64,000 bases of DNA, from sequence record PP216084; one strand, 5' to 3'. The translations under genes and the position numbers were made by a program. Shown piece by piece: positions 49,732 to 58,575 of the stretch; positions within the stretch are counted from its first letter, which is position 1; every line of letters starts with the position of its first letter. The stretch is from Escherichia phage vB_EcoS_HZ_ZJUN2. The notes beneath the pieces are model-generated. The model worked only from the letters and a program-made list of their open reading frames with translations. It was not told the DNA's origin and searched no databases.

Positions 49732-49954
49732 ATATTCATAAATTAGGGAACAGCGAGCCGATTACGCTGAATGCAGAATCCCAACCGGAGCGCATTGAAT
49801 AGAGTCGGTGGGTTAGTTGTAAAACTAGTACACAGGGGGCGGCAATCCCGGTTAGTGGCTAGAACGTGTAAAATGAGGCGTCTGAAACCTCTCCCCTAAA
49901 CTCTTCTCTAATTTATAAATAGTGGGGTGTGGAAATCACTTATGTAGTAACACT

Positions 49955-50026
49955 GCCGATCTAGTATAAACGGTATTATCAAGCCGTAACTGGTGGAAGA
50001 TGTAGGTTCGAATCCTACGATCGGTA
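49955..50026 (+). other. tRNA-like element with aberrant anticodon arm (possible pseudo-tRNA)
   Basis: 7-bp acceptor pairing GCCGATC/GATCGGT and perfect T-arm GTAGG-TTCGAAT-CCTAC, but no 5-bp anticodon stem with U33 and no encoded CCA. Confidence 0.3.
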
Positions 50027-50527
50027 AGAACTGGATAACTGGTGCTTTTAACGTAAAAGCTTCCGAGGTTAGTTGCGCACTGCCTAAACCACGCGGTAGT
50101 TGGTTCCAGACTAACCAACCAGTCTGCTGAATAGTTTTATTACGATTTAACTATGTCCAGGCTAAAGAAGAACTTTAGAAGGTATTCTAGGTAGTGAAGT
50201 TTTTCCTCCATATCGGAGTAGTTTTTCAAGCTACCAACAAAGTGGGAAATGCTGACATGAGAGATGTCACTAATGGTGCACAATAGCACAGGTAATTCGC
50301 GATAACTCCTGTTGAGTAGCAGCAAAAGGCGGGAAGTCATGACCCCAAGCCTAACCGAGTCCTCAATATACCGCAGGACATAACCACTAAGTCACCCTGA
50401 CTTAAACTGGAAAATAATAGACGTTACTGTATTTTGTCTTGAAATACTTAATGAGTGAGACTTATGACTCTCCCGGTATCGTCTGTATTTTTAAGAGTTT
50501 TTACGAGAGTTCTTAAAAATACTTAAA

Positions 50528-52503: not shown

Positions 52504-52581
52504 GGTTCTCAAGCTCATATGGTATGAGCACCCAGCTCATAACTGGAAGGTACGTAGGTTCGAATCCTCGGGGAGCCACCA
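52504..52581 (+). tRNA. tRNA-Met-like (anticodon CAT)
   Basis: Acceptor GGTTCTC/GGGAGCC, D-stem GCTC/GAGC, anticodon loop CTCATAA, CCA; T-stem has only 3 clean pairs. Confidence 0.55.
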
Positions 52582-54511: not shown

Positions 54512-54586
54512 GCACCTTTAGCTGAGATGGATTAGCGCTTGCCTGAAGAGCTTGAAAGGTTGGATCGTTACCAACGGGGTGCACCA
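54512..54586 (+). tRNA. tRNA-Phe (anticodon GAA)
   Basis: Acceptor GCACCTT/GGGGTGC, D-stem GCTG/TAGC, anticodon loop CTGAAGA, CCA; anticodon stem has two U-U pairs, T-loop ATCGTTA is atypical. Confidence 0.55.
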
Positions 54587-54603: not shown

Positions 54604-54876
54604 ATGCATCCTGAAAACTTCTTTATTTACTGCGCGGATAAGTCGCTGAAACGTAGAATTAACAAAGTCTATCATTATCGTGCTAGTCAACAGCCTTATG
54701 TATACGCTTTTGACGGTGATCACATTCCACTAGAACAATTATCTTGTGATTACATGATATTGAAGAACTTTGACGAGACGAAGATCTCAAGCGTTTATAA
54801 TCGACAGAATCCATTAACGTGGAAATATAAGAAGAAAAAGAAAGGCATCAAATTCTTAAAAAATATAGTTGCTTAG
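54604..54876 (+). CDS. hypothetical protein
   Basis: ATG at 54604 behind GAAGGAG, directly after tRNA-Phe. Confidence 0.45.
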   Translation: MHPENFFIYCADKSLKRRINKVYHYRASQQPYVYAFDGDHIPLEQLSCDYMILKNFDETKISSVYNRQNPLTWKYKKKKKGIKFLKNIVA

Positions 54877-54897
54877 TTTCCAAAAGTTCTGTATAAT
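54869..54897 (+). promoter_or_regulatory. T5-type promoter
   Basis: TTGCTT - 17 bp - TATAAT followed by AATTACATAAATTGAACTGGAG. Confidence 0.6.
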
Positions 54898-54945
54898 AAT
54901 TACATAAATTGAACTGGAGAAGCAACATGATAGAACAAGATAAAT

Positions 54946-55021
54946 CGACCGTTGGCTGAATGGCTTAGGCGAAGGATTGCAAATCCTTTTTATGTGAGTT
55001 CAAATCTCATGCGGTCGTCCA
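54946..55021 (+). tRNA. tRNA-Cys (anticodon GCA)
   Basis: Acceptor CGACCGT/GCGGTCG, anticodon stem AAGGA/TCCTT, loop TTGCAAA, T-arm GTGAG-TTCAAAT-CTCAT, CCA. Confidence 0.65.
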
Positions 55022-55023
55022 AT

Positions 55024-55170
55024 TTGCTGAAAGAATTGTTAAATCAATTCAGGCACGCGTAGGAACACTGTCTCCGTAATTGAAAGATGAGGCACGGTTT
55101 GGAGAGGTATGCCGCTACACGCTACGGTGCTAACTCCGTCTAGGTGAAAATCCTAGTCAGCAATGTAAAT
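55024..55170 (+). other. ~147-nt tRNA-like/structured RNA candidate closed by an acceptor-like helix
   Basis: 5' TTGCTGA pairs perfectly with 3' TCAGCAA; internal hairpins GAATTG…CAATTC and CTAGG-TGAAAAT-CCTAG; no ORF. Confidence 0.3.
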
Positions 55171-55173
55171 TTA

Positions 55174-55259
55174 GGGTCGTTGGCTGAACGGTTTAAGCGC
55201 CGGACTGTTAATCCGTATCCGCAAGGATAAAGTAGGTTCAACTCCTACACGGCCCGCCA
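55174..55259 (+). tRNA. tRNA-Asn (anticodon GTT) with an unusually long variable arm
   Basis: Acceptor GGGTCGT/ACGGCCC, anticodon arm CGGA-CTGTTAA-TCCG, 15-nt variable stem-loop ATCC-GCAA-GGAT, T-arm GTAGG-TTCAACT-CCTAC, discriminator G, CCA. Confidence 0.6.
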
Positions 55260-55286
55260 AATTCACTAACAACTGAGGAAATAGAT

Positions 55287-55472
55287 ATGACAACTCGTGC
55301 AATTGCTCGACTAGAAGCTGATCGTGATAATATGATTAATAATATTAAGGTTCGTGGTAATATTATTAAGGCTCTGAAAGCTGAACTTCTTGAGGAACTT
55401 CAAGGTCAAGTAGAGCGTCGTGAAGCTCTAAAAGAGGTTGAGGAAGCTATCGAAAAACTCAAGGCTGAATAA
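55287..55472 (+). CDS. hypothetical coiled-coil protein
   Basis: 61-aa ORF with GAGGAAATAG RBS. Confidence 0.5.
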   Translation: MTTRAIARLEADRDNMINNIKVRGNIIKALKAELLEELQGQVERREALKEVEEAIEKLKAE

Positions 55473-55475
55473 ATT

Positions 55476-56057
55476 ATGCACGGAATATCCTTACCCATTC
55501 CAGGGTTTGAGGAGTACTTAGTAAGTTTGGATGGGTTAGTATTTAGTATCAAATCAAACAAAATACTAACCCCAATAACCAGTAATTACGGATACTTATC
55601 TATACGTCTCCATAAAAATGGTCAACAGAGAAATACCGGTGTACATAGGATTTTAGCATGTGCATTTAAGAAATTACCAAGTCTAGACTCTGAACTAGAA
55701 GTTGACCATATTAACACAGACATTACTTATTGGGGTCTTAATAACTTACAAGTGCTCACAAAAGAGCAGCATCTAGAAAAGACTTTAAAAGATAAAGGAT
55801 TTAGTAAACTAAACCATGATAATTGTTGTAAGGATTGTGGTAAAGCTATTTCTTTAAAAGCTGAAAAATGTCAGGAGTGCTCTTCACATAAACCAAAAGA
55901 TATCTCTATAACTAAAGAAATAATCGAGGTTACAGTAAGAGAGCTAGGCTGGTCAGGTGCAGGGAGAAAGTTAAGTTATTCAGATAATGGGTTGCGTAAA
56001 AGATACACTTCTTTAGGAGGCAATCCTAAAGAACTTAAAAAGTTAAAGGTACTATAG
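55476..56057 (+). CDS. HNH homing endonuclease
   Basis: …YGYLSIRL…HRILACAF…EVDHINTDITYWGLNNLQVLTKEQH; C-terminal ELGWSGAGRKLSYSDNGLRKRYTSL module. Confidence 0.7.
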   Translation: MHGISLPIPGFEEYLVSLDGLVFSIKSNKILTPITSNYGYLSIRLHKNGQQRNTGVHRILACAFKKLPSLDSELEVDHINTDITYWGLNNLQVLTKEQHLEKTLKDKGFSKLNHDNCCKDCGKAISLKAEKCQECSSHKPKDISITKEIIEVTVRELGWSGAGRKLSYSDNGLRKRYTSLGGNPKELKKLKVL

Positions 56058-56139: not shown

Positions 56140-56298
56140 ATGGAACGTAGGGAGTTTACTCCAGAAGAGATAGAGCAGATAAAAGAATCTGCTATGAAAA
56201 ATGCTAGAATATCTCTGTCACTGGAAGGTATCATTATTAGTGATGTAAACTTTGAAAAAATCAAAGCCATAGCTGATGAACTGGAAAAAGTAATTTAA
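56140..56298 (+). CDS. small hypothetical protein
   Basis: 52-aa ORF with AAGGTAGG RBS, between tRNA-Asp and tRNA-Lys. Confidence 0.4.
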   Translation: MERREFTPEEIEQIKESAMKNARISLSLEGIIISDVNFEKIKAIADELEKVI

Positions 56299-56971: not shown

Positions 56972-57297
56972 ATAAATTGATGCGAAAATAGCTGCCTAGA
57001 TACCAGGTGTATGACGTCTACACTAGCAGAGCTACCGAAAAAGAGATCCTCAGGATAAACGTCGTAGCAAAATTAGTCTGGTATCCATCAATTTAGTTCA
57101 CTAAGGTATTAGCTCGACCTAGGACTGGCTGCCAAAAAGCACGATCCCTACGACTTGGGAGAAGTTCTAGATTAGTCCACTAGATTCAGCGGCAACTGAA
57201 TAGTGTATTGGGTTTGCGAGATGACGCGGTTCCTTCCGCTCGAAGCGAAGGTGCTGTAGTTACGCCGAGCTAATAGCCTTAGTAAACTAAAGAATTT
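56972..57297 (+). ncRNA. candidate non-coding RNA / structured precursor leader
   Basis: ~325 nt between promoter and tRNA-Ala with no plus-strand ORF longer than 15 codons; local hairpins such as CCTTCCGC-TCGAA-GCGAAGG. Confidence 0.3.
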
Positions 57298-58208: not shown

Positions 58209-58215
58209 AAATTCT

Positions 58216-58346
58216 TGGAATATGCCGGAATTGGTAGACGGGACTGCCGAATAGGTTTACTAGGAACATCCACTCCTAGAAATATACCTTAAAAGCGGTT
58301 GAGTTAAATGGTCTAACTCATGAAGGTTCAAGTCCTTCTATTCCTT
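58216..58346 (+). other. ~130-nt tRNA-like element (class-II-like with large insertion, no encoded CCA)
   Basis: 5' TGGAATA pairs at 6 of 7 positions with 3' TATTCCT; D-loop-like ATTGGTAGAC; variable-arm-like hairpin TGAGTT…AACTCA; canonical T-arm GAAGG-TTCAAGT-CCTTC. Confidence 0.3.
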
Positions 58347-58575
58347 GATACATCAATGGCTCAAAGTGTAACGGTGCTATTTGATGCTCTTGGCAAGACT
58401 TCCCCGACATGCGTTCGGGAGTAAGCTGCTAAGACTAGAATAGAAGAGTTTCTGAGAGCCGCCACAATTGAAAATTCGTACTCGTCTTGAGCTGCGTGCA
58501 ATAGGAGATAACTTGATTAGTATTCTAGAACATGCTAATTGAGGAAGGTTTCGCTAACCCTGCGAGTTTTCAATT

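Follow-up and report, generated by a model that had tools for sequence, protein, structure and literature searches.

The locus between tRNA-Cys and tRNA-Asn in Escherichia phage vB_EcoS_HZ_ZJUN2 (record PP216084; the 64,000-nucleotide (nt) stretch that was analysed is referred to below as the window) raises the question of what a sequence that is closed like a tRNA, but is too long to be one, represents within a tRNA cluster. A first-pass annotation made from the sequence alone had described an element of 147 nt at this position, free of open reading frames (ORFs), and had offered two explanations: an interrupted or degenerate tRNA, or a small stable RNA processed by the tRNA machinery. The latter is favoured here on the basis of the cloverleaf, a 12-base-pair (bp) stack, a T-loop motif, membership of a tRNA operon and covariation across phage families. 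Sequence comparison makes it highly probable that the element is an expressed, structured tRNA-like RNA gene, and we give the fuller statement, that it encodes a trans-acting tRNA mimic matured by tRNA-processing enzymes, a probability of roughly 0.6. The placement between tRNA-Cys and tRNA-Asn was verified with both ARAGORN and Rfam. The length has to be revised, as the conserved unit comprises 141 nt and the final 6 nt of the proposed span are spacer.

The element is present in about 219 phage records (blastn). T5-like phages infecting Escherichia, Salmonella and Shigella carry it at 95% identity or more, Yersinia phage phiR2-01 and Klebsiella Sugarlandvirus at 88-90%, and Klebsiella Mydovirus (Vequintavirinae; VIK251, BIS47, P8734 and others), which are myoviruses unrelated to T5, at 76%; both siphoviruses (the Demerecviridae) and myoviruses (Mydovirus) have it. 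Its setting is the same throughout the clades: it forms part of a tRNA cluster, has the orientation of the tRNA genes and starts 2-3 nt past the CCA of one of them. In the window this preceding tRNA is tRNA-Cys and in Mydovirus tRNA-Ser; in the Sugarlandvirus clade it is tRNA-Asn where the records annotate it (in phiR2-01 it is unannotated, its counterpart in other Sugarlandvirus records being annotated as Asn). When clades are compared, the homologous stretch has its two limits exactly at the ends of the terminal helix (P1), which suggests that the unit behaves, or moves, like an independent tRNA-type gene. Among the records listed, none annotates it as an RNA, and full-text searches of the literature found no description of it; it is a clean, unannotated structured RNA shared across families, and its covariance model could be used to correct genome annotations. 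In BIS47 (KY652726) a 'DNA ligase' coding sequence and in Roth37 (PQ657803) a 'hypothetical protein' are drawn across the element or the adjacent tRNA, and both calls are probably mis-annotations.

More distant searches did not extend this distribution. Blastn with the T5-like and Mydovirus copies returned the same records only, and pattern scans of IMG/VR, Joint Genome Institute (JGI) metagenomes and GTDB genomes recovered the same three clades and no bacterial genome. A loose pattern, CGCGTAGG..CGGTT..GCCG, gave 120 chance matches, the covariance model (R1, described below) matching none of the 80 loci listed, and no match to the element was found in 5,426 E. coli genomes at E <= 10.

The evidence for a conserved fold comes from comparison of these copies. 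RNAalifold applied to a hand-made alignment of nine sequences gave five helices, P1 to P5 (Table 1), and when all column pairs were scanned, the helices with the strongest covariation were P2, P4 and P1. The covariance model R1 was built from the RNAalifold structure and used to align 17 copies, 14 of them distinct, from the three clades. In this alignment the paired cells amount to 98.0% (shuffles, 87.5 +/- 0.9%), and the covariation score is 0.275 (shuffles, 0.098). Double changes are found in 15 of the 38 pairs (9.5 +/- 1.8 in shuffles), although with three clades only many of these trace to one or two evolutionary events. The observed values were reached by none of 500 shuffles, and when the 3' partners were slid by 1-3 columns as a control, pairing dropped to 25-44%. 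The double changes in P1 are GC/AU, CG/UA, UA/CG and GC/UA. The compensatory changes that the first-pass annotation had proposed to look for among relatives are therefore present, and so is a conserved secondary structure.

The pattern of divergence leads to the same view. Between the window and Mydovirus, the stems of P1, P2 and P4 are only 33-57% identical yet still paired, and the P4 loop is 21% identical, while identity reaches 81% in P3, 85% in the 27-nt core and 100% in the T-loop. P4 has a wholly different stem sequence and loop in Mydovirus (6 bp, 7-nt loop), and P2 there consists of 5 bp with a 5-nt loop. Divergent stems that remain paired, together with an invariant core, are typical of a folded functional RNA. 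The strand of this RNA can also be assigned. Two G-U pairs, G29-U108 and U75-G88, never vary, and P2, P3 and P4 contain additional U-G pairs; all of these would be C-A mismatches in an RNA transcribed from the minus strand. On this evidence, and because the element always points the same way as the tRNAs, the plus strand is the RNA strand. A minus-strand RNA, which has the better fold in isolation, was rejected on the same two grounds. Taken across genomes, the sequences thus describe a conserved, strand-specific, tRNA-shaped structure.

These observations also bear on whether the element acts as DNA, for instance as the target of a homing endonuclease or as an inverted-repeat recombination site. 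Its slot looks like an insertion hotspot for nuclease genes (an ORF with a T5orf172 domain in T5, an HNH gene in Klebsiella phage K54_rec5 and an HNH/NUMOD4 ORF in the window), which speaks for such a reading. However, the G-U pairs and the strand-specific compensation preserve pairing in RNA and not palindromes in DNA, the ends of the unit coincide with an RNA helix, and the orientation to the tRNAs is fixed in all clades, so that a DNA-level element is very improbable.

The likeness to tRNA is one of topology. From 5' to 3', the element consists of 7 bp, 2 nt, an arm, 1 nt, a 5-bp stem, 8 nt, a 5-bp stem with a 7-nt loop, the closing 7 bp and a discriminator, which is the four-way junction of the tRNA cloverleaf. 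The perfect 7-bp helix formed by the ends, the 6-bp hairpin that follows its 5' arm (after 2 nt, AA) and the T-arm-like hairpin that precedes its 3' arm had all been recognized in the first-pass annotation and correspond to P1, P2 and P5; a single nucleotide separates P2 from P3. P5 adjoins the 3' strand of P1 directly, and the two form a 12-bp acceptor/T-arm stack. Like a canonical tRNA (RF00005), the element has a 7-bp acceptor, a 5-bp T stem and a 7-nt T loop, and P5 keeps the equivalents of G53-C61, U54 and A58 that make up the T-loop motif. Unlike a canonical tRNA, it has no anticodon loop, no G18 and G19 in the loop of P2, where tRNA D-loops carry them, and no equivalents of psi55 and C56. 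The sequence also bears out the absence of a TTCGA T-loop and of an encoded CCA, T55164 being followed by GTAAATTTA.

R1 itself points to tRNA. When phage tRNA clusters were searched with the unfiltered model, the only matches above 12 bits besides the element were tRNAs (Pro at 18.5 bits, Ile, Gln, Thr and His), all on the plus strand and all spanning model positions 1-141; weaker matches include positions that are not tRNAs. In the alignments of tRNA-Pro to R1, a 7-nt anticodon loop replaces the 70-nt interior of P3, and the outer 5 bp of P3 correspond to the anticodon stem. A weak match at 56191-56274 of the window falls within an ORF and was put down to chance. In the other direction, neither RF00005 at E <= 10 nor ARAGORN with default settings recognized the element.

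It could be argued that such a molecule is a decaying tRNA pseudogene with an insertion in its anticodon loop. Its cloverleaf connectivity, the weak alignment of real tRNAs to R1 and the cloverleaf drawn by ARAGORN when introns are allowed at an 80% threshold are all what a pseudogene would give. Decay, however, does not explain why compensatory changes maintain every helix, including P4 within the supposed insertion, why the insert is better conserved than the tRNA-like stems, or why the element persists across Demerecviridae and Vequintavirinae at the divergence of genuine tRNAs (tRNA-Ser is 80-83% identical between the groups), and the Rfam tRNA model and default ARAGORN are blind to it. 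We consider a pseudogene quite improbable.

Even less can be said for an intron-containing tRNA that is spliced to a functional product. With the same threshold (ARAGORN -i, 80%), the window and phiR2-01 copies are reported as 'tRNA(cta), intron 63 nt at position 33/34', that is, with an amber-reading CUA anticodon, while in the same run Mydovirus VIK251 receives a different and poor solution. The anticodon loop implied, CGCUACG, has G33 and C37 where a tRNA has U33 and a purine at position 37 in a 7-nt loop, and by reading of the sequence no other placement of the cuts mends this loop. A group I intron was also considered and rejected: the insert of 63-70 nt is far below the roughly 200 nt or more of group I introns with their P1-P9 core, and Rfam returned no match to Intron_gpI or any other intron family. 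A bulge-helix-bulge motif was not seen in the element, and to our knowledge bacteria have no splicing system of that kind. A spliced tRNA is accordingly given a very slim chance, and the interrupted or degenerate tRNA that had been proposed is set aside in both its forms: the insert is structured and the best-conserved part, the stems covary, no valid anticodon loop can be formed and no intron family is matched.

What distinguishes the element from a tRNA is the region beyond P3. The outer 5 bp of P3 enclose 70 nt at the place where a tRNA has its anticodon loop, and past the inner part of P3 lies an interior domain of about 60 nt made up of P4 and the invariant tract CGGUU...AUGCCGCUACACG. 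The motif CGCUAC is duplicated in the element. A further hairpin, P6 (CGGU/GCCG), with a purine-rich loop of 12 nt, is possible inside the conserved core; being invariant across the alignment, it is neither favoured nor disfavoured by covariation. Positions 55100-55104 in the P6 loop may in turn pair with 55134-55138 in the variable-region equivalent. This candidate pseudoknot is paired in 95.7% of cells and shows one double change (A-U to G-C) and one single change (U-G to C-G), with one pair broken in Mydovirus, and is suggestive only.

The same region contains a short reading frame, which qualifies the earlier description of the element as ORF-free. That description holds for ORFs of at least 60 amino acids (aa), but mechanically called ORFs of 28-36 aa overlap the element and one of 12 codons, from AUG 55109 to a UGA at 55145 in the T-loop, lies inside it. 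This frame would encode a 12-residue peptide (MPLHATVLTPSR in the window, MPLHATGLTLSW in Mydovirus) preceded by a Shine-Dalgarno-like GGAGAGG, and its frame, length, AUG and UGA are common to the T5-like and Mydovirus copies. Nevertheless, three of the four codon differences between these clades are non-synonymous and coincide with compensatory changes in stems, and the third positions of the first six codons are all invariant, which fits selection on RNA better than selection on protein. In addition, Klebsiella phage Shiner has AAG in place of the AUG, only 1-4 nt separate the Shine-Dalgarno-like motif from the AUG, and the AUG and most of the ORF lie within P6, P3 and P5. Translation of this frame as the function of the locus is hardly credible.

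Table 1. Features of the tRNA-like element and its immediate neighbours (window coordinates)
Feature	Position	Strand	Remarks
tRNA-shaped RNA gene, 141 nt including discriminator U55164	55024..55164	+	limits from inter-clade homology; model R1 end to end, 171 bits
P1 5' strand, acceptor-like, TTGCTGA	55024..55030	+	7 bp with 55157-55163; 100% paired; 4/7 pairs double-changed
P2, D-arm equivalent, GAATTG-TTAAAT-CAATTC	55033..55050	+	6-bp stem, 6-nt loop UUAAAU; 100% paired; 5/6 pairs double-changed
P3 5' strand: GGCAC (anticodon-stem equivalent), bulged G55057, CGUAG	55052..55062	+	100% paired; 2 double-changed pairs in outer 5 bp
P4, variable peripheral hairpin, UGUCUC / 14-nt loop / GAGGCA	55069..55094	+	3 double-changed pairs
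Conserved core CGGUUUGGAGAGGUAUGCCGCUACACG, 27 nt	55095..55121	+	100% identity with phiR2-01, 85% with Mydovirus
P3 3' strand: CUACG + GUGCU	55122..55131	+	pairs with P3 5' strand
Variable-region equivalent AACUCCGU, 8 nt	55132..55139	+	candidate pseudoknot partner
P5, T-arm equivalent, CTAGG-TGAAAAT-CCTAG	55140..55156	+	5 bp, 7-nt loop UGAAAAU; one double change (A-U to U-A); loop 100% invariant
P1 3' strand, TCAGCAA	55157..55163	+	followed by invariant discriminator U55164
tRNA-Cys(GCA), upstream, encoded CCA at end	54946..55021	+	ARAGORN; Rfam tRNA 48.5 bits
tRNA-Asn(GUU), downstream, 9 nt past discriminator	55174..55259	+	ARAGORN; Rfam tRNA 54.7 bits
Likely promoter, TTGCTT / 17 nt / TATAAT	54869..54897	+	inside T5 P14b-homologous stretch 54849-54923

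Several observations weigh against a functional tRNA mimic, in addition to the small number of evolutionary events behind the double changes. The window copy on its own has a minimum free energy of -41.1 kcal/mol (z = -1.85), which 11 of 200 shuffles equal, and its minus strand alone folds better (z = -3.55). Because the lone fold is statistically unremarkable, the case rests on the comparison between genomes. The alignment used for the pairing statistics (A4) was moreover fitted to the model, although the sequences align unambiguously except in P2 and P4. The elbow equivalents that are missing (G18/G19 and psi55/C56) are those touched by RNase P, and with no CCA encoded either, efficient processing of the tRNA type is not guaranteed. 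The element is also far from universal. T5 does not have it and carries the T5orf172-domain ORF T5.069 in its slot; of the 429 records that match the Cys-Asn region, 219 carry the element, so that about half of the T5-like genomes are without it. In Salmonella phage NR01 (IMG/VR copy; locus L014, 924-1055) the 3' half alone is left, from the P4 loop onward. Finally, no partner protein was found to co-occur near the element in the window and Mydovirus loci compared.

The absences and the truncation in NR01 indicate that the element is dispensable and should be regarded as an accessory gene and not an essential one. The NR01 remnant is joined to unrelated sequence at a deletion that also took tRNA-Cys, and this phage is a natural knockout of the RNA. 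In Seunavirus SSE121 two tRNA-Ser genes are adjacent and the element is absent. As to partners, an ORF-by-ORF blastp comparison of the Mydovirus loci with the window shared only artefacts of tRNA overlap and one protein of 212 aa. This PHROG 'tail fiber protein' was rejected as a partner, its likely ortholog being T5.085 of T5, which has no element (the orthology was judged from length and position and not from a sequence alignment). The copy in Salmonella phage KKP_3822 (OQ674104; locus L022, 1203-1332) shows about ten scattered single-base deletions, and the neighbouring tRNAs appear similarly affected; errors of assembly or sequencing are a more likely cause than genuine decay.

Dispensability in many relatives, and the constant position between or beside tRNAs with spacers of a few nt, would also suit a cis-acting processing or spacer module, which would recruit RNase P and RNase E to separate the neighbouring tRNAs and leave a functionless piece to be degraded. 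Against this, neighbouring tRNAs in the same clusters stand 0-9 nt apart with no such module, and the flanking tRNAs vary by clade (Cys/Asn, Asn/other, Ser/Ser), so no particular tRNA depends on the element. Furthermore, the 60-nt inner domain and the T-loop are the most conserved parts (85-100%), and a mere RNase P handle would have no need of that domain. We therefore regard a processing module as unlikely, though it is the most probable of the alternatives weighed, and retain the trans-acting tRNA mimic as the preferred explanation.

If the element is such an RNA, the question becomes whether it belongs to a known kind. That phage tRNA clusters encode extra stable RNAs of unexplained role has been recognized since the 1970s and 1980s, examples being species 1 and 2 of T4 and RNA I, III, 1 and 2 of T5 (PMC3014915, PMC9697503). 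RNA1 (144 nt) and RNA2 (125 nt) of T5 are labelled 'tRNA-like stable RNA with unknown functions' in AY543070, and species 1 and 2 of T4 are rnaC (139 nt) and rnaD (119 nt). The element resembles T5 RNA1 and RNA2 in lying in the same genome region and on the same strand, among the tRNAs of a T5-type cluster, and in its length class. They also fold to the same design: the closing helix resembles an acceptor stem, a D-like arm and an over-long central arm follow, and the T arm directly adjoins the 3' strand of the closing helix. They differ in having canonical T-loops (UUCAACU and UUCGAAU, against UGAAAAU in the element), and the element's family, unlike the T5 set, also occurs outside Demerecviridae. 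The T4 RNAs, likewise small and stable, are encoded where a tRNA cluster ends and in the orientation of the tRNAs, and the fold of rnaC has a terminal helix and a T arm beside the 3' strand; however, rnaC has a canonical GGUUCGAAUCC T arm and a different internal architecture, and expression is proven for the T4 RNAs and inferred for the element.

In sequence, the element stands apart from all of these. R1 found no match in the T5 and T4 loci, and blastn of the T5 and T4 RNAs against the window gave matches elsewhere but none at 55024-55164. Homologues of the T5 RNAs at 92-99% identity are present in the window at other positions, namely rnaIII (58469-58574), rnaI (58358-58464), rna1 (58214-58357), rna2H (57107-57278) and rnaX (49899-50527), whereas T5 rnaIV, rna2, rna3 and ORF T5.069 have no counterpart there. 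Since the window carries these five homologues, the element is additional to the T5 set. It shares with the class a position within the cluster on the tRNA strand, spacing of a few nt and the shape of an RNase P substrate too long to be a tRNA. It has no sequence or profile homology to the known members, the phage tRNA-like stable RNAs being a functional class and not a homology family. The element hence represents a new sequence family in a class that is known but unexplained. The Rfam scan that the first-pass annotation had suggested agrees, as no family in Rfam 15 matched the element, either in a search of 48-64 kb at E <= 1 or with the window and Mydovirus copies alone at E <= 10. A chance HIV-1_SL3 match of 15.9 bits fell on the minus strand of the window copy, and the Mydovirus copy gave nothing.

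A second stretch of this sort may exist in the Yersinia and Klebsiella phages. In phiR2-01 (locus L003, about 1650-1715), and also in loci L024 and L025, about 65 nt that bear no annotation come after the element (AGGGUAAG...AUCGG-UGGAACU-CCGGU-GCGCCCU), and a short terminal helix and a T-arm-like hairpin (5 bp, 7-nt loop) can be drawn for them. The fold of this sequence alone is not significant (z = 0.29), and the stretch may be another small tRNA-like RNA.

Outside phages, the closest parallel in design is transfer-messenger RNA (tmRNA, SsrA), which is processed by RNase P. Both are tRNA-shaped, with the anticodon arm replaced by a long helix leading to a structured and possibly pseudoknotted domain. 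The element is much smaller, however, has neither a tag frame nor a resume codon, and carries G-C or A-U at pair 3-70 where tmRNA has the G3-U70 alanine identity pair. A tmRNA was rejected, ARAGORN -m and Rfam both being negative.

A route of maturation can be proposed from what is established for tRNAs in E. coli. The element would share a transcript, started at the P14b-type promoter, with tRNA-Cys and tRNA-Asn, and RNase P would cut 5' of U55024, recognizing the 12-bp acceptor/T-arm stack. The 3' end would be freed by RNase P or RNase E around the downstream tRNA (with RNase P acting at the 5' end of tRNA-Asn) and then trimmed by 3' exonucleases, possibly followed by addition of CCA. The product would accumulate as a stable RNA like species 1 RNA of T4 and RNA1 and RNA2 of T5. 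The maturation pathway of E. coli tRNAs has the corresponding steps (for example PMC2190699): 5' ends made by RNase P, polycistronic transcripts separated by RNase E and RNase P, and trimming by 3' exonucleases.

The covarying stems, the invariant core and the spread over two phage families that share enterobacterial hosts suggest a trans-acting RNA with a specific partner. The tRNA-shaped half might dock on a tRNA-binding protein, with the domain that replaces the anticodon loop supplying specificity, and the RNA could then serve, for example, as a decoy for, or an inhibitor of, a defence nuclease or a host enzyme directed at tRNA. PMC11464382 and bioRxiv 10.1101/2023.03.15.532788 report that tRNAs of the T5 family counter the PARIS system and retron Ec78, respectively. 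Because phage tRNAs of this cluster neutralize defences that target tRNA, the leading guess is that the RNA acts as a decoy for, or inhibits, a host factor directed at tRNA, although by analogy this can be put forward only as a tentative possibility. More speculative still is the specific version, in which the invariant domain (inner P3, CGGUU...AUGCCGCUACACG, the duplicated CGCUAC and the possible pseudoknot) would be a dedicated binding module and the RNA a tRNA-scaffolded inhibitor or decoy of a host tRNA-directed protein. Conceivable but doubtful targets in that case would be a defence effector of the anticodon-nuclease type or an enzyme that modifies or processes tRNA. Within the 64-kb window, no sites complementary to the invariant tract were found beyond chance. 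If the proposal is true, the element would be a counter-defence gene that acts through RNA and is passed between enterobacterial phages unrelated to each other, and would provide a first function for a 50-year-old class of phage tRNA-like stable RNAs. Very similar and readily available phages differ naturally in its presence, the sequence being 100% identical in Escherichia phage HildyBeyeler and absent from T5, and this polymorphism makes the old question of the role of the stable RNAs experimentally tractable.

The surroundings of the element belong to the early/tRNA region of a phage of the T5 type. Over positions 54900-55264 the window matches HildyBeyeler (MZ501074; blastn) at 100% identity, and the plus strand between 49.9 and 60.1 kb holds 21 tRNA genes according to ARAGORN and 2 more according to Rfam. 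The gap between tRNA-Cys and the element is 2 nt (AT). The stretch 54783-54944 is 96.9% identical to a T5 stretch annotated as 'promoter P14b' in AY543070; the promoter hexamers in Table 1 were read directly, the consensus scan having raised no flag there because the -35 hexamer matches at just 3 of 6 positions.

The slot occupied by the element looks like a hotspot of nuclease-gene turnover. Just 3' of tRNA-Asn, a 61-aa DUF7337 protein is encoded at 55287-55472, followed at 55476-56057, about 300 nt downstream of the element, by a 193-aa ORF resembling homing endonucleases (NUMOD4/HNH_3). The equivalent slot of T5 holds T5.069, an ORF with a T5orf172/MUG113 domain, and in K54_rec5 an annotated HNH endonuclease gene takes the place that the element has in Mydovirus.

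Some of the neighbouring tRNAs are themselves unusual. The tRNA-Asn(GUU) beside the element is 86 nt long, with a variable arm of 15 nt that forms the hairpin AUCC-GCAA-GGAU, and this class II-like shape is uncommon in a tRNA-Asn, the tRNA-Asn of T5 being an ordinary one of 78 nt. In the Vequintavirinae (Mydovirus and Seunavirus) tRNA-Asn is also 85-89 nt long (loci L001, 3555-3643; L153, 3226-3310; L154, 3515-3599). The sequences at 52504-52578 and 54512-54583, on which default ARAGORN is silent, score 38.2 and 32.6 bits with the Rfam tRNA model (gathering threshold 29) and correspond by position to T5 tRNA-Ile2(CAU) and tRNA-Phe, respectively. Lastly, a tRNA-Ser with anticodon ACT (49954-50027; ARAGORN, and Rfam tRNA at 39 bits) falls within the region homologous to T5 RNAX, a 719-nt 'stable RNA with unknown functions', which therefore appears to contain a tRNA-like unit.

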